Shown here: positions 8,309 to 30,020 of the stretch, in pieces
How positions within the stretch are numbered: position 1 is the first letter of the stretch
Layout of the letters: the number at the start of each line of letters is the position of its first letter
Source of the DNA: a virus
Strand: one strand, 5' to 3'
IMG/VR virus record: IMGVR_UViG_3300000956_000001
Span: 18,630-82,629 of that record
DNA: 64,000 nt
The notes under the pieces: model-generated
Databases searched by the model: none
Seen by the model: the letters and a program-made list of their open reading frames with translations, nothing else
Told to the model about the DNA's origin: nothing
Program-made: the position numbers and the translations under genes

Positions 8309-8543
8309 CGTACTCCCCAGGGATTGACTTGATGAAGAAGATCTCTTCGATGCGAGTGACGTGCATGCCTTCATGTGTTGCCCACTCGCGAATGTTCTCG
8401 TAGTTCAGAGCATCCATTACAATGCTGTGATGAGCGCCCGCTCGGTCCGTGCACGTAGGCGAGAAGGCGCACGCACCAGCCTTTTTATCGTCAGGGCTGT
8501 GCATGACTGGCGGTAGCAGCTTGAATGTCACGATGAAATGCAT
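8091..8543 (-). CDS. hypothetical protein
   Basis: Starts at the recombinase stop; the 3' part overlaps the next gene. Confidence 0.5.
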   Translation of the reverse strand: MHFIVTFKLLPPVMHSPDDKKAGACAFSPTCTDRAGAHHSIVMDALNYENIREWATHEGMHVTRIEEIFFIKSIPGEYDVPVSGGQLGVDGREADGGSTRLSSAHADTTFDLSPATGPLVEYPITGICSGFNAAREVEEDRARRRVSSGD

Positions 8544-9385
8544 TACTTGTTTCCACTCTCGCGCATCTCATCGAACGTCATGCCGATGTAGCGCATTGTC
8601 GTGTTGACGTCAGCGTGACCGAGCCATCGCTGAAGAAGTGTGATGTCTCTTGTTTGCTTGTACAGAACCGTCGCGAATGTCGCGCGCAGGTCATGACTAG
8701 CAACTGGACGAGATATGCCAGCCCTGACGCCCAGCTCCGTAATGAATGATCGCGCACCACGGTCACTGTAGTTAATCAGTCGCTCACGTCCGGAAATCTG
8801 AACGGCGATGATCTGCGGTGCCAGGAACGTGAAAGCTCGATTCGTCACCGGGATGACTCGAAGCTTCTGCCCCTTACCCCACACGCTGATCGATAGTCCC
8901 GAAAGATCGATGTGACTATCTTTCAGCTCTAGAGCTTCATGCATGCGAAGTCCCTCGCACCCGAGTAATGCGACAAGTGCTCGCTTCTCGTCAGTGTCGC
9001 ATGCAGCGAGCATCTTGTTGAGATCATGTTCGCGATTCGGAAGGGGGTGCGCCTCTGCGGTTGGAACGGCTGGAAGCTTGTAACGCTTCAGGACGTCGCC
9101 CTCAAACCCCAGGTATTCCTTCAATGCCAGGATGCTCGCCTTGCGTCGACGAATCGTCATCGGAGCCAACTCGATATCCGTCGACAGCTTCAGCCATGTC
9201 GCTGCCAGCCTCGGCAGGTCCTCCACCTGAAAGGACTTGACCCCCAATTCCTTGAAGAGCATCTTGATATCGCTGGAGTACGCCTTCACTGTGTGCACCG
9301 ACCGGGAGAACTGAACGTCGGACAACCAAAGTCGGAAGCCCTCGATATCCTCGGTCGTCAGAGTCGTCACCTGTGGCATAGTCAT
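8543..9385 (-). CDS. tyrosine recombinase (XerC/D-like integrase family)
   Basis: SAM-like N-terminal domain (S.HTVKAY.SD) and complete catalytic set: GLRMHEAL, GKGQKLR, HDLRATFAT, LGHADVNTTMRY. Confidence 0.93.
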   Translation of the reverse strand: MTMPQVTTLTTEDIEGFRLWLSDVQFSRSVHTVKAYSSDIKMLFKELGVKSFQVEDLPRLAATWLKLSTDIELAPMTIRRRKASILALKEYLGFEGDVLKRYKLPAVPTAEAHPLPNREHDLNKMLAACDTDEKRALVALLGCEGLRMHEALELKDSHIDLSGLSISVWGKGQKLRVIPVTNRAFTFLAPQIIAVQISGRERLINYSDRGARSFITELGVRAGISRPVASHDLRATFATVLYKQTRDITLLQRWLGHADVNTTMRYIGMTFDEMRESGNK

Positions 9386-16913: not shown

Positions 16914-18542
16914 TTACTCCGTGAAGTGAGAGTTGATAGTAGTTGTCATCGCCTCCCACTGCGCGGGTTCGAGCGCGTCTCCGATTGCCCGACGATAAGC
17001 CGTGACTGGATCGAAGTACCTCAGGGAGCGGACGAGTTTGATCTGATGACGAAGGCCCCAACTGGTGTGCAGAACGCCATTTGCGGCCGATTCACGAAGC
17101 TCCTTGGCGGCTGCCATGACGGACTTCATCTGCTTCTCCGGGACCACCCAACGGTCGCGCTCAACACGACGCTGGAGAATCTTGATCTCCAGCTCCTCGG
17201 GCGGATAGTCGAAGAACACATGGGACATGCGACTGTTATCGGCATCGGCAATCATCTGTGCGCCGACATTCAGTACGCCCCACTGAGGATTCATCGCCAT
17301 GAAGAAGTAGCAGTCATCATGACGGTAGTACTTCTGGTCGTGCAGGTGGGCGAGCTTCAGGGTCTTCCGATTGTCCATGAGTGGACGGAAGAGTTGCCAG
17401 ATCTCTGCAGGTGCAGTGTTGGGCTCGTCGGCAAGCAGGATACCCGGCCTCGACCACCCGATTGGCAGCTCCCCGAGGTGAGCTACCGTCTCGCCGTTCT
17501 CGAAGAGCATCTTTCCTGCAACGCTATCGATCTCGGAGCTACCGTCGAGGCCGATATACCGGAATGGCGCCTGCATTTTCCAGGCGATCCATCGACCCAT
17601 TTCGGTCTTGCCAGTACCGGCCGCTCCCCACGCAGCTGGCACCTCGTCCAGTTTCATGAACAGAACGGCGAAGGTGTACAGCAGTCCACCGTGATCTGCG
17701 TAGTCCTCAGGAGCCTCGCGATCACCAGTGTTCGGGATCAAGTCAAGGTCGTCATCATCGAACAGACGCTTCTTTGACTTGCCATCAGGCGTCAAGACCA
17801 TGGCATCACGATCGAAGATGGGCAGGTATACAGGCTCCCCGTACCCCTTGGGGTCTTCGACCTTGCGCCAAGCGCGGATGCCTCGCTTGAGGCGCATTGC
17901 ATCACTGACTGGACGATCGGTCTGGTAATCCTTGGGGTCGACGAAGTGTGTGAGTGATGACTCGTACTGTTGCGCGACGTCGATCTCGCCGAATGTTGCA
18001 CTGTACTGCGGAAAGAAAACAAACGTCTTCAGTGGGTCAACCGGGCGGATGCCAACCTGACGTCGGAAGGTGCCGCACTTCTGTGCGTACAGATTCAGAC
18101 GCGCGTTGGGCATAAGCGATCCGGTCGCTCGGCACAGACTGCCAGTCCAGCCGGTAACCTTCTTGACCTCAACCTGGTCGACGTAGTTCACGCAGCTGAT
18201 ACAGTTCGGAGCGTCGCTTGCGTCCGGGAAGGATCGATGTGCCGACGCTGCCTCTGCATCCATGCCGACTCGCAGAATCGGTGCAGAGTTGGGACCAAGC
18301 GGCGTGATCTCGCCAGAGTATCCGAAGTCGCCACAGTTAGCGGCAATCTTCTTCAGAACCCTGCGACTTGTGTCGGCACCCTGCACTGGCTGGATGAGGG
18401 GCAGCATCTTGAGACCACAGACAGGCGAGGCGATGTTCGTCGACAGCGCATTCGTTTGAGCAGCGCCCGTGAGGAACGAGGGACACGTACGGCACGTGCG
18501 CTCGACTGTCGTTGGTCCAGTGGCGGTCGTGGCAGTAGTCAC
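16914..18542 (-). CDS. MoxR/CbbQ/CobS-type AAA+ ATPase with Cys-rich N-terminal extension
   Basis: GAAGTGKT Walker A, LLADEPN Walker B, MAMNP, DYP..E.E..IL, S.GLR; neighbouring vWA gene. Confidence 0.88.
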   Translation of the reverse strand: MTTATTATGPTTVERTCRTCPSFLTGAAQTNALSTNIASPVCGLKMLPLIQPVQGADTSRRVLKKIAANCGDFGYSGEITPLGPNSAPILRVGMDAEAASAHRSFPDASDAPNCISCVNYVDQVEVKKVTGWTGSLCRATGSLMPNARLNLYAQKCGTFRRQVGIRPVDPLKTFVFFPQYSATFGEIDVAQQYESSLTHFVDPKDYQTDRPVSDAMRLKRGIRAWRKVEDPKGYGEPVYLPIFDRDAMVLTPDGKSKKRLFDDDDLDLIPNTGDREAPEDYADHGGLLYTFAVLFMKLDEVPAAWGAAGTGKTEMGRWIAWKMQAPFRYIGLDGSSEIDSVAGKMLFENGETVAHLGELPIGWSRPGILLADEPNTAPAEIWQLFRPLMDNRKTLKLAHLHDQKYYRHDDCYFFMAMNPQWGVLNVGAQMIADADNSRMSHVFFDYPPEELEIKILQRRVERDRWVVPEKQMKSVMAAAKELRESAANGVLHTSWGLRHQIKLVRSLRYFDPVTAYRRAIGDALEPAQWEAMTTTINSHFTE

Positions 18543-21340: not shown

Positions 21341-22138
21341 TTACGCCCGAGTCAGGACGCCAGCCGCGAGAGCGGCCTGGGTCCAGGATGCCCACTCGAC
21401 CAGCATGGCGTCGGCGAACTCTGCCTCAGAGCATGCCAGCAGGTCACGCTGGTACGTGCTGCGCTGGGTGTTGATGTTGTCGAGCAGACGCTTCGGGCCG
21501 GTGTATCGGTCCACGTAGTCGAACAGCTCGACGTGCCTGACGACGATCGGCTTGATGAAGATCGGGTAGCGCGACGTCTCCCAGAACAGGTCGAGCGTCT
21601 CGTCGTCGTACCGACGGTTCGAGTTGTCGCCGTCCGACAGGATCGCAGCGTGGATCGGCGCCTTGGCCTTCTTGCCGAGCTTGATGAGCGCCTTGAGTGG
21701 CTGACGCAGGTCCGTGCCGCCCATCCGTCGACGACCACCGAGTCGAAGCTCCCGCTCGATGATGCCTCGATAGTTGCTCACGGAGGCTGTGATGCCCTCG
21801 TAGATATCCCCATCGAAGCCGATGACCGGAACCTGTCCGTCAACATCGATCTGGAGAACGAATCCCAGGTAGCGCTCCGCCATACGCTGGACGGCGCCCG
21901 AACTGTACTCGTTGGCCATTGAGCCGGAGTGGTCGACGATCAGAACGCCGTCCGCCTTGACGCCATTCTGGCCAGCCTTCTTGAGGCTGATGCCAGCGGC
22001 GCGCGCGTTCTTGGCGAGACCCTCGTGACCGGTCTTCTCCAGTGCCTCCAAGTCGATTGCCGACTCGTCGACGTTGGGCCGGTAAATCAGCGGTGCCGAG
22101 TGGGCGACCGTGATCTTGTTGCCTGGCATGCCGAACAT
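21341..22138 (-). CDS. vWA domain protein, TerF-associated type
   Basis: LIVDHSGSMANEYSSGAVQ..AER......D.DG.VPV..F, MGGT, ILSDG, S.YPIF; GAGGAGG RBS before ATG 22138. Confidence 0.85.
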   Translation of the reverse strand: MFGMPGNKITVAHSAPLIYRPNVDESAIDLEALEKTGHEGLAKNARAAGISLKKAGQNGVKADGVLIVDHSGSMANEYSSGAVQRMAERYLGFVLQIDVDGQVPVIGFDGDIYEGITASVSNYRGIIERELRLGGRRRMGGTDLRQPLKALIKLGKKAKAPIHAAILSDGDNSNRRYDDETLDLFWETSRYPIFIKPIVVRHVELFDYVDRYTGPKRLLDNINTQRSTYQRDLLACSEAEFADAMLVEWASWTQAALAAGVLTRA

Positions 22139-22303
22139 GTTCCTCCTCGTTGGGTATGGGGAACGCGATAGCCGAGACACCTCCTGAAACAGGCGGCCTC
22201 TTCCAGTCTCGACTACCGCCGCACTGGGCCTAATCCCTCCCAGTACAGACTCTAGTCACTGCTGCGTCAGCTTGACGGCCCAGGTTTCTCACGCCTGGTG
22301 TGA

Positions 22304-25752: not shown

Positions 25753-25844
25753 CTGTGACCCTTCCGATCGAGATAGATGACAACGCCAGCACCAGCCAGG
25801 GCAACGATAACGCTACCAATGCAGATGTACTGCCAGGTGTACAT
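25749..25844 (-). CDS. small membrane peptide (31 aa)
   Basis: MYTWQYICIGSVIVALAGAGVVIYLDRKGHR; overlaps on both sides. Confidence 0.55.
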   Translation of the reverse strand: MYTWQYICIGSVIVALAGAGVVIYLDRKGHR

Positions 25845-26305
25845 CAGGCGTCTGCCTTAAGTCCATCCCTGCGACGACGCGCGTTGACGATGGCAGCGGC
25901 ATTCTCACGCTCACGCTCGACCAGGCGGGCACGCTCTGCCTTGTTGTGCATGCGTCGCGTCTCGTTGCGCCGGTCACGCTTCGCTCGAAGTTCGGCCTTC
26001 GCCGACTCCAGGCCGCTGGGGTGCGCGGCCAGACGCTTGATACTCACGCCCAGGAAGGACTTGCCGGAGGGCTTACCTTTGCCGGTCAGCTTGTTGCCGT
26101 CGGCGCTGTACCGGCGAGTCGTCGTCGTGTTGACCTTCTCCAGGACGAAGATCTTCTCGCTGTCCTTGTTGCTCGGGTCACGTGGCAGCCAGATACCACG
26201 GGGGTCCTGGATGACGGCCATTTCCTGCTTGAACGCCTTGCCATTACGACGCTTGGAGTTCCGCGCGCCCCGCTCTTTCTTGGGCTTCTGCTGCGCACTC
26301 GCCAT
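25844..26305 (-). CDS. highly basic hypothetical protein
   Basis: GGGAGGTG RBS before MASAQQK; strong codon bias. Confidence 0.7.
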   Translation of the reverse strand: MASAQQKPKKERGARNSKRRNGKAFKQEMAVIQDPRGIWLPRDPSNKDSEKIFVLEKVNTTTTRRYSADGNKLTGKGKPSGKSFLGVSIKRLAAHPSGLESAKAELRAKRDRRNETRRMHNKAERARLVERERENAAAIVNARRRRDGLKADA

Positions 26306-26347
26306 GACGAGTCGCACCTCCCTCTCTTGTCTGCTCTTGACCGCTTG

Positions 26348-26464
26348 CTAGTTGGGTCGACCAACCAGGACGCCTGCCAGAAAGATACATATGGCCAGAC
26401 ATACTGAACCTGATCCAATCAGGTACCAGCATACCATCTCGTTGTTACCGAGGGCGTCGAGCAT
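26348..26464 (-). CDS. small membrane peptide (38 aa)
   Basis: MLDALGNNEMVCWYLIGSGSVCLAICIFLAGVLVGRPN. Confidence 0.45.
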   Translation of the reverse strand: MLDALGNNEMVCWYLIGSGSVCLAICIFLAGVLVGRPN

Positions 26465-26522
26465 CTTGTTCACTGTTTAGTTGGCCTTCCCACCGCTTGC
26501 GTCTGTAGCTGAGCTGGCTACG

Positions 26523-26646
26523 TACCGTCGCGAGGAGTCGAACCTCACCTCCTGGTCGCACTCGCCTACCCCGAACTTATAGGCGAGCGACTGCACCCTG
26601 CTAACGCTGACAGGGCGACCAGTGTTTTGCTACTAAACTAGACGGC
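26523..26646 (-). ncRNA. tRNA-like RNA with expanded anticodon domain
   Basis: Acceptor GCCGTC/GACGGT, U8A9, D-arm GTTT-AGTAGCA-AAAC, T-arm TGAGG-TTCGACT-CCTCG; the anticodon stem CTGGTCGC/GCGACCAG encloses two hairpins instead of a 7-nt loop. Confidence 0.65.
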
Positions 26647-26679
26647 TACCCTGGGTTTCGCGTCGCCGATCAGGACGCG

Positions 26680-26787
26680 CTACACCCAGATAGGAATGAG
26701 TGTGACGGACAGATTGACGGCGAGCCAGATGATTATGGCTGTGTCAACCTTGATCCGAGTTGCCGTGCTGATTTGCCAGTTTTTCAT
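26680..26787 (-). CDS. small membrane peptide (35 aa)
   Basis: MKNWQISTATRIKVDTAIIIWLAVNLSVTLIPIWV. Confidence 0.45.
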   Translation of the reverse strand: MKNWQISTATRIKVDTAIIIWLAVNLSVTLIPIWV

Positions 26788-26836
26788 GACGATCCTGACT
26801 AGAACGCCTGAACAGAGTATTTTTTCGGATACAGAC

Positions 26837-26876
26837 AAGCCCTGGCACTCGCTTGGGAGACGTTGTGCCAGGGCTT
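26837..26876 (-). terminator. terminator-like hairpin at the 3' end of the structured region
   Basis: 12-bp stem AAGCCCTGGCAC/GTGCCAGGGCTT. Confidence 0.65.
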
Positions 26877-26879
26877 ACC

Positions 26880-28049
26880 CTCGTGCCGCTACATGTGCCT
26901 GACGGACTGTTACGCTTCACAGGCTTCCACTCAGGCTAGCCATAGAGGCCGTGCCGACTCGTACGGCGACCGGTTCCCCTTGCTGCTTGTGGTGCTCCCT
27001 TGGTTGTAACCCGACTTGGATGCGTACCTCGGGATTGCGCCTCCACCAGTCCGTCAGGACTTGTCTTGCCACATAGCCAATACCCCGCAGTGGGCATTGA
27101 TGGGCTGACCAATCAGAGTCAGAGGTTTGATCAACACACTGACTAAACGTGACTGGTCCGCAGGTGTGTCTACTTGCTAGCTCGCCAGGGTGACGCCAGT
27201 CAAGGCGCCGCTTTGCGCAGGTAGCCGCCAACTGGTCAGCCCGAGGGTTGCATCACGCTGGTGTAATGCGCTGACACTTCAACCTAAACAGGCCCTACCC
27301 GTCTGCAATAGTCGGTGCACGCCTGCCGTTTGTCGCTGGCCCGTTCGGGGTCCAGCCCAGGTGGTCTGCCCATTTCCCAGTTTTTTCGTTGGCCCTGACT
27401 AAGGCCGGTTCATCCTTCCTGTTCTCGGACGTTTCCGTCTCCGAATACAGGGGTCCAACCAGACGCCTTGATCAGGGCCGTACGCGTGATGCAACCTTCG
27501 CGCTAACCAGGTGCTCGTCTACCGGCTAACCGTTCCGTTGTGCGATGCGTGATGGTGCCTGTAGCCCGCTAGGATCGACGCTGACGACCGTTTGTGGCGG
27601 TTGCTAGGGTGGGTAACCCCCGTGCGGTGTAACGCGCTACGGGCGATCCTAGCGGGCTTTGTGCAGTGTTACTGTGCGGACTCGACCAGTCACGTTTGGT
27701 AACCTCACGTGACAGAGGTAAGCGCGGCAGGATTCCGGCCTGTCGTTCTCAGGACTGCTGGACTCCGGGGGTCGCAATGACCCATACTCCGGTTTTCCCA
27801 GGCGGAACCCTGCCGCTGGTTGGACCCATCGTGAGTCAGTCACGTAGCGTTGCGTCGAGTGCGTGCGGGACCTAACCGATGATAGCGCGGGAGCTATGTC
27901 GATCAGTACGGACGCACTGGGAGGCGCGGCTTGATGGCTGGCGTTGATGTGTCCGCTGACGGGACATCGGCTGGGAAAGGTGGGTAACCCTGACCGATGT
28001 ACCGCCAGCGCACACATCACACTGTGTTGTTAGGCAGCGTGATGGTGCC
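26880..28049. ncRNA. candidate large structured non-coding RNA(s)
   Basis: No credible ORF. Many long perfect helices: 26898-909/27047-058, 27102-111/27233-242, 27246-258/27484-496, 27391-398/27472-479, 27563-577/27644-658, 27724-731/27809-816. Confidence 0.65.
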
Positions 28050-28086
28050 CCTGGACGCCTGATCCTGCATGGGCCAGGCGTCCAGG
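28050..28086. terminator. terminator-like hairpin
   Basis: 12-bp stem CCTGGACGCCTG/CAGGCGTCCAGG downstream of the 371-aa gene; the T-rich tail is on the + side. Confidence 0.65.
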
Positions 28087-28105
28087 TTTGTTGCCGTGGT
28101 GCGGA

Positions 28106-29221
28106 CTAGGCGACCTTGCGAGCGCCGCCCACGCCGCCATCCTGGGCGGGCACGATGCCTTCCAGGTTGAACTTGGGGCTGGACAGGGCGGCCGTGATGG
28201 CACCCGAGCTGGCGTTGCCGTCCGGGTACTCTTCCGTGCGAGTCTTCGCAATCTGGCCCGTCTTCAAGAAGGTGCCGACCGGCACGCTCGCGAAGACCTC
28301 CTGGATGTGCGACTTCACGCTGCGCTTCGGACCCGTGTAGGCGTCACGCGTACCCGTGCTGGTGGCGGTACCGGCTGCCTTCGGCGCACGAACCTTCGCG
28401 ACGTTGCCGCCACGACCGTGCGCGATCTTGGCCGCGTTCTTCACGACGACGTGGACCTCGGGCGCCTTCGGCTCGCGGGCCGCGTACGCCTCGTCCGTCT
28501 CGTCGGTCTTCTTGCCCTCGGTCGCCCAGGAGTTGTGGTCGACCTCGTACGCCTGCCACGCCTTGACCTCGGGGGCCAGCGACTTCGACAGCTCCTGGAC
28601 CTTCGCGGTCCAGTCGGGGCTCACGCCCTCGCCCGGGGTCAGCATGGAAACCGCCAGGTAGAACGCGGAGACCTTCTCGACGTGCGCCTGCGTCGGATCG
28701 ACCGGAGGCTTGACGACCTGCTCGCGCTGGGCGGTTGTGGTCTTGACCTCGGCACCGAGATCCATGTAGACCTTCGCCTTGGAGGCGTTCAGCTCCTTGG
28801 TGAGCGAGGTCTTCATCCCGGTTTCGAGGAAGTCGCGGGCCTTCTTCTTCAAGCCCGGGGTCGGCAGGGCCGCGTAGGCCAGCTTGACCGGTGCGACGTT
28901 CACCGTGGGGACGTCGCCGGTCGTCTGGTCGCGCGCCTCGACGGCCTCGTTGACCTTCGCCTCGAACTCGGCGAACAGCTTCGCGTGCTCCGCCTCGGTG
29001 GCAGCCTGCTCGGCGGCCAGCTCCTCGGGGGTCTTCGTCGGGCCGGTCGCGGTGTTGGCGTCCGGCGTCTCGGGGGCCTGCGGGGTTTCCAGGTTTTCGA
29101 CCGGAGTCGCAACCTGCTCGGGCTGCGACTCGGTGGCCATGCCCGGAAGGCTGGACATCTGCTCGGTGGGCTGCGTGACCTCTTCGGCCGAAGCCGTGGT
29201 CACGTCATCCTGGTCACGCAT
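28106..29221 (-). CDS. highly expressed protein with C-terminal winged-helix-like domain
   Basis: Extreme GC3 bias, GAGGAG RBS, two consensus promoters upstream; C-terminal SVKSHIQEVF...TGQIAK..TEEYPD...SSGAITAAL. Confidence 0.8.
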   Translation of the reverse strand: MRDQDDVTTASAEEVTQPTEQMSSLPGMATESQPEQVATPVENLETPQAPETPDANTATGPTKTPEELAAEQAATEAEHAKLFAEFEAKVNEAVEARDQTTGDVPTVNVAPVKLAYAALPTPGLKKKARDFLETGMKTSLTKELNASKAKVYMDLGAEVKTTTAQREQVVKPPVDPTQAHVEKVSAFYLAVSMLTPGEGVSPDWTAKVQELSKSLAPEVKAWQAYEVDHNSWATEGKKTDETDEAYAAREPKAPEVHVVVKNAAKIAHGRGGNVAKVRAPKAAGTATSTGTRDAYTGPKRSVKSHIQEVFASVPVGTFLKTGQIAKTRTEEYPDGNASSGAITAALSSPKFNLEGIVPAQDGGVGGARKVA

Positions 29222-29488: not shown

Positions 29489-29681
29489 CTGGGCCGTTGT
29501 GCTGTGTTGCTGTGTGCATGCGCCAGGTAACGCTGCCCGTAGGCGAGCGTGCTGGGTCATGCTGCGCACCGTAAACAGGGATCGAACCTGCCTGCTGGGT
29601 ACCAGCCAGCGCCCCACCAGGGGTCACGATGTCACCTGAACGGACGGATAGGCGTCCAGATGAAGGTCTGACAGTGAAGGT

Positions 29682-30020
29682 CTAGCCGTACAACCCGTCA
29701 CGATTGTTGGGCCAATTGGGGCTCATGACTGCGGCCATGGCATCACGACCTGCCTGCTCGGCAGCGGGTGACATGCGAGGAGGCTCGTTGATGGCTTCGA
29801 TGTCGGTCTTGTTCATGTCGCGAATCACCCAGGGCCAGTTGCCGTGGGCGAGTCCGTCTGCAATCGCACGGGCCAGGTAGATCGCCTGCGTTCGCAGAGA
29901 CATGCCGTCGGCAGCCATCCGGTTGACCTGCTCGGCGCAGTACGCCTGGTCACTGCCCTTCGGCGCGTACGATTGCAGAATCGTCAGCAACTCGTACATA
30001 CGATCGTGATCTGTCTTCAT
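29682..30020 (-). CDS. hypothetical protein
   Basis: AAAGGTGGG RBS before MKTDHD. Confidence 0.7.
   Translation of the reverse strand: MKTDHDRMYELLTILQSYAPKGSDQAYCAEQVNRMAADGMSLRTQAIYLARAIADGLAHGNWPWVIRDMNKTDIEAINEPPRMSPAAEQAGRDAMAAVMSPNWPNNRDGLYG

Follow-up and report, generated by a model that had tools for sequence, protein, structure and literature searches.

The window analyzed here, a stretch of 64,000 nucleotides, belongs to a complete virus record of 82,629 bp that carries direct terminal repeats and comes from a soil metagenome. The phage proteins resemble those of Gordonia, Tsukamurella and Rhodococcus phages, and the gene order matches that of Gordonia phage Adgers. Because of this likeness to actinobacterial phages in both proteins and gene order, the host is probably an actinobacterium. 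In a long arm of the minus strand, two tiny open reading frames (ORFs) flank an intergenic element of 124 nt that has the shape of a tRNA (Table 1). Stop codons occur in all six frames across the element and no ORF crosses it, nor is there a promoter or terminator consensus near it. Upstream lies a strongly folded region that is free of ORFs.

Other genes in the window deserve mention. Just downstream of the RNA cluster is a gene for a very basic protein, whose first ~26 residues (MASAQQKPKKERG.RNSKRRNGKAFK) are nearly invariant in 8/8 homologues, even at 43% overall identity. The protein matched no Pfam or PHROG family and no PDB fold at E ≤ 0.001 (AlphaFold mean pLDDT 68); judging from its sequence, the N-terminus could be an arginine-rich nucleic-acid-binding peptide. 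A tyrosine recombinase is encoded further away in this phage with direct terminal repeats, and the phage may be temperate, or the recombinase may act in some other site-specific reaction. The genes of a vWA-TerF-like protein and of a MoxR-type ATPase form a pair that is syntenic with the AAA-ATPase/CobT-like pair of Gordonia phage Adgers.

Table 1. Features of the tRNA-like element and its surroundings. Positions refer to the window; element positions p1-p124 correspond to window positions 26646 down to 26523.
Feature	Window position	Strand	Remarks
Whole tRNA-shaped element (p1-p124)	26523-26646	−	124 nt; sequence reading, fold, descriptor and model R1 match here only in the window
Acceptor stem, 5′ strand (p1-6)	26641-26646	−	partner 26524-26529; 6 bp; terminal G1.U123 (G:C in the X11 relative)
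D arm (p9-23)	26624-26638	−	4-bp stem (p9-12/p20-23), 7-nt loop; direct reading; unchanged in the relative
Outer ("anticodon") stem, 5′ strand (p25-30)	26617-26622	−	partner 26552-26557; MFE and two-sequence consensus
Insert hairpin A (p31-52)	26595-26616	−	7-bp stem (p31-37/p46-52), 8-nt loop; MFE and two-sequence consensus
Insert hairpin B (p58-88)	26559-26589	−	10-bp stem (p58-67/p79-88), 11-nt loop; 3′ arm is the GTAGGCGAG copy (26561-26569)
Outer stem, 3′ strand (p90-95)	26552-26557	−	MFE and two-sequence consensus
T arm (p99-117)	26530-26548	−	6-bp stem (p99-104/p112-117), loop UUCGACU (U54 U55 C56 R57 A58), G53:C61
Acceptor stem, 3′ strand (p118-123)	26524-26529	−	discriminator A = 26523; CCA not encoded
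Upstream 35-codon ORF (MKNWQ...)	26680-26787	−	predicted small membrane peptide, putative ORF
Downstream 38-codon ORF (MLDALG...)	26348-26464	−	predicted small membrane peptide, putative ORF
ORF-free, strongly folded region (candidate giant ncRNA)	26880-28095	−	~1.2 kb, ~230 nt upstream of the element; stops in all frames
Very basic protein	25844-26305	−	153-157 aa
vWA-TerF-like protein	21341-22180	−	
MoxR-type AAA_5 ATPase	16914-18542	−	
Tyrosine recombinase	8543-9385	−	Phage_integrase, E = 1e-22
GTAGNCGAG example sites	56, 6731, 8455, 12077, 19114, 24652, 26561, 29539, 33744	both	

The letters of the element agree base for base with those of the first-pass annotation of this DNA, which had described acceptor, D and T arms like those of a tRNA and had noted the lack of an anticodon loop, of an encoded CCA and of the D-loop GG. 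Direct reading of the sequence and folding with RNAfold both bear out this description. The minimum free energy (MFE) structure, at −56 kcal/mol (z = −3.3; 1 of 200 shuffles was equally good), recovers the acceptor, D and T arms together with a three-way junction where the anticodon loop would stand. A U-A linker between the acceptor and D stems occupies the positions of U8 and A9, one unpaired A lies between the D stem and the outer stem, and three unpaired bases separate the outer stem from the T arm. In place of the anticodon loop there is an insert of 59 nt that forms two hairpins, A and B; the outer stem, hairpin A and hairpin B are joined by 0, 5 and 1 unpaired bases. The two-hairpin insert had been recognized previously, but the earlier drawing with stems of 8+4+8 bp has to be revised: both the MFE and the two-sequence consensus favor a 6-bp outer stem, a 7-bp hairpin A and a 10-bp hairpin B, and the T stem has 6 bp.

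The acceptor and T stems add up to 6+6 = 12 stacked base pairs, the canonical split being 7+5. By direct reading, 16 of the 18 universal or semi-conserved tRNA positions outside the anticodon region are present: U8; G10, Y11, A14, R15, one of G18/G19, A21 and R24 in the region of the D arm; and G53, U54, U55, C56, R57, A58, Y60 and C61 on the T side. The two exceptions are the second G of G18G19 and the pyrimidine at position 48, where the element has a purine. Compared with a canonical tRNA, the element thus has the 12-bp acceptor/T stack, a UUCRANY T loop and a D arm with U8/A14/A21, with only one G of G18G19; a 5-bp anticodon stem and a 7-nt loop with U33 and purine 37 are absent, and the 59-nt junction is found instead.

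How often such an arrangement arises by chance was estimated with a descriptor that required a T arm with a TTCRANY loop, an acceptor stem of 6-7 bp, U8, a 4-bp D stem and an anticodon stem of at least 5 bp, with an insert of any size. The descriptor matched once in the 82.6-kb genome, at the element, and not at all in 1873 dinucleotide shuffles; the odds are approximate, since the descriptor was composed after the element was known. The combination of T arm, acceptor and D arm alone occurred 0.004 times per shuffled genome, while a T arm with an acceptor alone is expected 0.24 times per genome. For practical purposes, a chance origin of the fold is excluded.

ARAGORN with default settings reported no tRNA genes in the phage, the element included, and none in tmRNA mode (-m). 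The canonical tRNA family, RF00005, had no match at E ≤ 10 anywhere in the phage, which is without any ordinary tRNA gene. In Rfam, the element had no match at the gathering score; at E ≤ 10, the sole result was a chance match to Rubella_3 (13 bits, overlapping the 5′ edge). We therefore rejected a decoding tRNA, as no finder or model calls the element and the 7-nt loop is absent. A tmRNA was rejected as well, since the pair 3:70 is C:G, the length is 124 nt and neither ARAGORN -m nor Rfam gives a match, and so was a YrlA or Y RNA (RF02553), for which there is no Rfam match, no permuted topology and no TROVE domain in the phage. Neither Ro60/TROVE nor a CCA-adding enzyme was found among the phage genes. 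ARAGORN, Rfam, the topology and the descriptor all agree with the earlier view of a tRNA-like ncRNA that is neither a tmRNA nor a permuted YrlA. No natural family with a non-permuted tRNA body and a folded insert for the anticodon loop is described in Rfam 15 or in the literature searched.

The intron mode of ARAGORN proposed a second candidate at 29566-29704 on the minus strand, with a 47-nt insert. This sequence has a good T arm (GCAGG UUCGAUC CCUGU) and spans a gene junction; its fold has z = −0.8, there is no D arm of the kind in the descriptor, and it was not matched by R1, a covariance model built from the single sequence of the element. It is probably a false positive. A weak intron call in one of the relatives (G003, L061 3441-3616) was rejected on account of an 8-nt T loop and mismatches.

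Near-identical copies of the element are present in several sequencing runs of the probable source soil sample. A relative, ~93-97% identical and present on short contigs, was found in X11, a run from an independent soil sample of 2025. The X11 contigs tile positions 26430-27367 plus further stretches up to ~29360, and have the same order of small ORF, tRNA-like element, small ORF and folded region, with the same neighbors. The element in this relative differs by six substitutions and one deletion, and no pair is broken. Three of the substitutions exchange a G.U pair for a Watson–Crick pair: U>C at p123 in the acceptor stem (G1.U to G:C), G>A at p116 in the T stem (U100.G to U:A) and G>A at p59 in hairpin B (G.U87 to A:U). 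C>U at p89 falls in the junction, or changes G:C to G.U in the drawing of the first-pass annotation. The sole difference in hairpin A, C>G at p41, is in its loop, and the remaining two, C>U at p74 and the deletion of an A at p70, are in loop B.

When the same substitution types were placed at random on the same bases, 3.5% of the placements broke no pair (P = 0.035), a value that holds both for the structure drawn a priori in the first-pass annotation and for the refined structure. The joint chance that includes the conversions of G.U to Watson–Crick pairs is <0.001, but this figure depends on the allele chosen as the start, so we relied on 0.035. Read on the plus strand, these three exchanges would produce A.C mismatches, so it is the minus-strand RNA that is under constraint. 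The MFE structures of both alleles have the same acceptor, D and T arms and the three-way junction at the anticodon position, and neither allele has lost any of the four tRNA helices or of the two insert helices. The divergence of the element, ~5.6%, is that of its surroundings; as judged from these sequences, it is the fold that is conserved, not the letters. The search for covariation in homologues that had been proposed as a check on the element came out in its favor, with the pairs maintained as expected for a tRNA-like non-decoding RNA, although the support is modest, consisting of seven differences between two alleles in one lineage.

More distant relatives gave no sign of the element. 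R1 had no match at E ≤ 1 in 15 IMG/VR relatives (3 complete, 12 partial) with portal proteins 42-58% identical to that of the phage. In the four longest relatives (three complete, one 77%), RF00005 gave nothing above threshold and a relaxed version of the descriptor had no match. A blastn search against 50,697 phage records found no match, and the exact T-arm/acceptor and D-arm strings had 0 matches across IMG/VR. Searches for the locus anchored on proteins led only to distant loci, 32-44% identical, whose gaps show no similarity at the DNA level. In Gordonia phage Adgers, the gene order is kept and there are small ORFs in the gap, with no tRNA and no long gap. Some relatives are closer at the protein level, with 58-79% identity for the upstream 371-aa gene (79%, 72%, 62% and 58%) and 56-62% for the downstream gene of the basic protein; in two cases, homologues of both flanking genes are found on equal-sized contigs, of 8953 bp in one case and 39136 bp in the other. 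Among the relatives examined, the element appears, as far as seen, to be confined to one lineage, comprising this phage and its one near relative. Had relatives carried a normal tRNA at this place, the element might have been taken for a degenerate insertion; instead, the distant complete relatives have neither the element nor a tRNA.

Hairpin B is connected to a motif that is found throughout the phage. Its 3′ arm is a perfect copy of GTAGGCGAG, and its 5′ arm is an inverted copy with 8/9 matches. The degenerate form of the motif, GTAGNCGAG, is present 32 times in the window, compared to 1.6 expected (20-fold; 0/100 shuffles), and is the most over-represented 9-mer of the genome, in which CTCGCCTAC is the commonest 9-mer, with 18 copies. 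The copies of GTAGNCGAG occur on both strands, within and between genes, and 27 of the 32 lie between window positions 1 and 34000. In one distant relative, G002, which has 12 copies, the enrichment is only weak. GTAGNCGAG is probably a DNA-level recognition site.

The ORF-free region upstream of the element contains nested long-range inverted repeats. The 996 nt from 27100 to 28095 fold with −462 kcal/mol, versus −377 ± 9.5 kcal/mol for shuffles (z = −9.0). Two loop motifs are repeated, GGGUUACCCACC twice and GGCACCAUCACGC two to three times. Over positions 26300-28300, Rfam found no family at E ≤ 10, GOLLD and ROOL included, apart from miRNA-like hairpin matches upstream of the element. In the relative, which is ~94% identical here, there are two compensatory double changes, at 27079/27098 and 27587/27601, both from U:A to C:G, as well as many C>U changes opposite G, which yield G.U pairs specific to the minus strand. 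The region is a candidate for a new giant structured RNA, and since it too has compensatory and G.U changes, the whole locus looks like an RNA locus. Within the large RNA, positions 27343-27350 are complementary to 8 nt of loop B, but ~0.1-0.3 such matches are expected by chance, so this one was not counted.

In light of these observations, it is likely that the element is real, tRNA-derived and structurally constrained as an RNA. We considered the possibility that it is instead a dying tRNA gene, in which a palindromic insertion bearing the motif destroyed the anticodon loop and which has been drifting without function. The background rate of divergence, the imperfect elbow and acceptor stem and the absence of the element from relatives outside the lineage would all fit such a history, as would the stem of hairpin B, a dispersed GTAGNCGAG copy that could mark the insertion. 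Under drift, however, about two thirds of randomly placed changes would fall in pairs and many would break them, whereas none does so here (P = 0.035). Moreover, all helices are intact in both alleles, and the phage group has no other tRNA from which a pseudogene would be expected; we consider this history improbable. It is highly unlikely that the sequence serves as a DNA site, either an attP core derived from the 3′ end of a host tRNA or an inverted-repeat operator of the GTAGNCGAG motif. The phage does have a tyrosine recombinase, hairpin B is an inverted repeat of the motif, and 22 nt of the T arm and acceptor 3′ strand are identical to a tRNA-Ile(GAU) from an Actinomycetota metagenome-assembled genome (MAG). 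However, the recombinase gene is ~17.5 kb distant, an attP core needs no 5′ acceptor strand, D arm or U8/A14, and the three swaps between G.U and Watson–Crick pairs are strand-specific, pointing to RNA. The 22-nt identity came out of a search of 185,579 genomes for precisely this string and is expected by chance. A 20-nt string of the 3′ half matched six genomes, two of them in tRNA genes of unrelated phyla (a Brevundimonas tRNA-Met and the Actinomycetota MAG tRNA-Ile), and the D arm and anticodon stem of these genes are unrelated to the element. (The tRNA-Ile(GAU) gene of the MAG, at L044 6590-6779, is itself odd, with the acceptor sequence CCCGUCG, a terminator-like T run before it and a tRNA-Tyr directly after it.)

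An intron-containing tRNA, one of the possibilities raised in the first-pass annotation, would decode after removal of the intron from the transcript. With introns allowed and a lowered threshold, ARAGORN does propose a tRNA-Tyr(AUA) with a 35-nt intron, but only at a score under the default, and the proposed structure relies on an anticodon stem with mismatches and a "variable arm" of 25 nt. There is no excision that would produce a 7-nt loop with U33; whenever the insert is simply excised at the outer stem, position 33 is G or A. The core of a group I intron is ~200 nt or more, for which the 59-nt insert is too short, and Rfam has no match to Intron_gpI, another intron or a ribozyme at E ≤ 10. 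No bulge-helix-bulge motif is present either, and bacteria are not known to have the bulge-helix-bulge endonuclease. A spliced tRNA is therefore scarcely plausible. The suggested role as a decoy for anticodon nucleases is also unlikely, as such enzymes would find no anticodon loop to cleave; the element may act as a decoy for enzymes that recognize the acceptor or elbow end. The element might also be a processing signal and nothing else, its tRNA shape drawing RNase P and RNase Z to cut a polycistronic minus-strand transcript and the excised piece being functionless. Transcript-cutting signals of tRNA shape include mascRNA, for MALAT1, and the tRNAs in mitochondria. Here, the cut would create a 3′ end for the large RNA and small ORF upstream and a 5′ end for the genes downstream. 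This would fit the location of the element between the folded 1.2-kb ORF-free region and the downstream genes, on one strand and with no promoter or terminator consensus nearby, as well as its 12-bp acceptor/T stack. There is also the precedent of phage T4, in which a single precursor is cut to release eight tRNAs along with the species I and II RNAs (PMC2330249). On the other hand, a minihelix of acceptor and T arm would suffice for RNase P, yet the element retains both hairpins as well as a D arm with U8/A14/A21, and the swap from G.U to A:U is in hairpin B. The 35-codon ORF and a hairpin separate the large RNA from the element, which thus does not form the immediate 3′ end of that RNA. We consider it rather unlikely that cutting is all that the element does.

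The interpretation towards which we lean is that of a tRNA-derived, non-decoding RNA that would mature through RNase P and RNase Z of the host and the addition of CCA, and would act as a natural tRNA scaffold displaying the insert. The imperfect elbow, the 6-bp acceptor stem, the background rate of divergence and the restriction to one lineage count against it. The element would be transcribed within a long early transcript of the minus strand. Its open acceptor stem, 12-bp acceptor/T stack, regular T loop and D arm suited to an L shape would make it a substrate for the tRNA-maturing enzymes of the host. Host RNase P would cut 5′ of G1, RNase Z or exonucleases would trim after the discriminator A, and a CCA-adding enzyme would cap the element. 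Since the phage has no CCA-adding enzyme, maturation would depend on that of the host. The product is predicted to be a stable RNA of ~124 nt (127 nt with CCA). Its tRNA body would serve for processing, for stability and as an L-shaped handle, while the working part would be the two-hairpin insert. Cleavage at the element would also give the flanking RNAs defined ends, including the large folded RNA upstream. That the insert hairpins and the D arm have been kept speaks for a role of the excised RNA itself, beyond the cutting. Because hairpin B carries the motif, a phage factor that reads GTAGNCGAG would be the first candidate for a partner of the insert; any particular function of the element can be put forward only weakly.

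Such a maturation pathway has precedents. The tRNA-like module of the Mycobacterium smegmatis YrlA undergoes RNase P cleavage and receives CCA in vivo (PMC4201824); the same paper, though, names a 7-bp stem as a major determinant for RNase P, which counts against the 6-bp acceptor stem of the element. The 12-bp acceptor branch is the substrate geometry common to processing RNases, the CCA-adding enzyme and EF-Tu (PMC5389517). In E. coli, a tRNA scaffold in which the anticodon stem-loop is replaced and the acceptor, T and D arms are retained undergoes processing and is stable (PMC3753655). This scaffold, engineered by Ponchon and Dardel, is similar to the element in design, in that a helix closes a structured insert that stands where the anticodon stem-loop would be. 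It relies on cellular tRNA processing and gains stability, while processing is a prediction for the element. The scaffold is man-made and has the 7+5 split, whereas the element is natural, phage-encoded and has 6+6.

Non-decoding tRNA look-alikes such as tmRNA, YrlA, mascRNA and the viral TLS have each opened a piece of biology. Like the element, tmRNA has an acceptor stem and a T arm without an anticodon, but it is longer than 230 nt and also contains G3:U70, pseudoknots and a reading frame for a tag; the element has none of these features. The mascRNA of MALAT1 (RF01684) is likewise tRNA-like and is cut from a longer precursor by tRNA-processing enzymes; it is eukaryotic, however, and keeps a small anticodon-like loop, and the element has no Rfam match. 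Some small RNAs that are tRNA-like or co-processed with tRNAs have no known function of their own. The species I and II RNAs of T4 (PMC2330249) are comparable as small RNAs that are co-transcribed with tRNAs and released from a longer precursor. YrlA and the other Y RNAs (RF02553; PMC4201824) are also non-decoding RNAs with tRNA-like D and T arms, with members in phages too. They are permuted, however, and end at the Ro-binding stem, with the "acceptor" closed and the gene located beside Ro60, whereas the element ends at its acceptor stem.

The surroundings of the element are reminiscent of the GOLLD and ROOL loci. These RNAs are "often near tRNA islands", and tRNAs are sometimes carried in a linker (10.1101/2024.12.08.627333); the GOLLD gene of mycobacteria is predicted to contain a pseudo-tRNA (PMC6582537). 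In both situations, a large ornate RNA lies beside, or contains, a tRNA or pseudo-tRNA in a phage or prophage, and the hosts include mycobacteria, which are actinobacteria like the inferred host of this phage. Unlike in the GOLLD and ROOL loci, the large region here is outside both families and the tRNA-like element has a large insert in place of the anticodon loop. We regard it as doubtful, but worth stating, that the element and the ~1.2-kb RNA make up a new kind of functional unit, an actinophage counterpart of the GOLLD/ROOL-plus-tRNA loci. The anticodon-less tRNA body, possibly CCA-tailed or aminoacylated, would then be a dedicated cargo, tether or maturation handle for a new giant RNA, and hairpin B would be read by a GTAGNCGAG factor. 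If phages use the design described here, then tRNA finders systematically miss a class of phage RNA genes, and host tRNA-processing enzymes are borrowed for making stable effector RNAs. The link between giant RNAs and tRNAs, known from the GOLLD and ROOL loci, would also gain a clean test case, with one tRNA-like gene, one giant RNA and no true tRNAs in a single phage.
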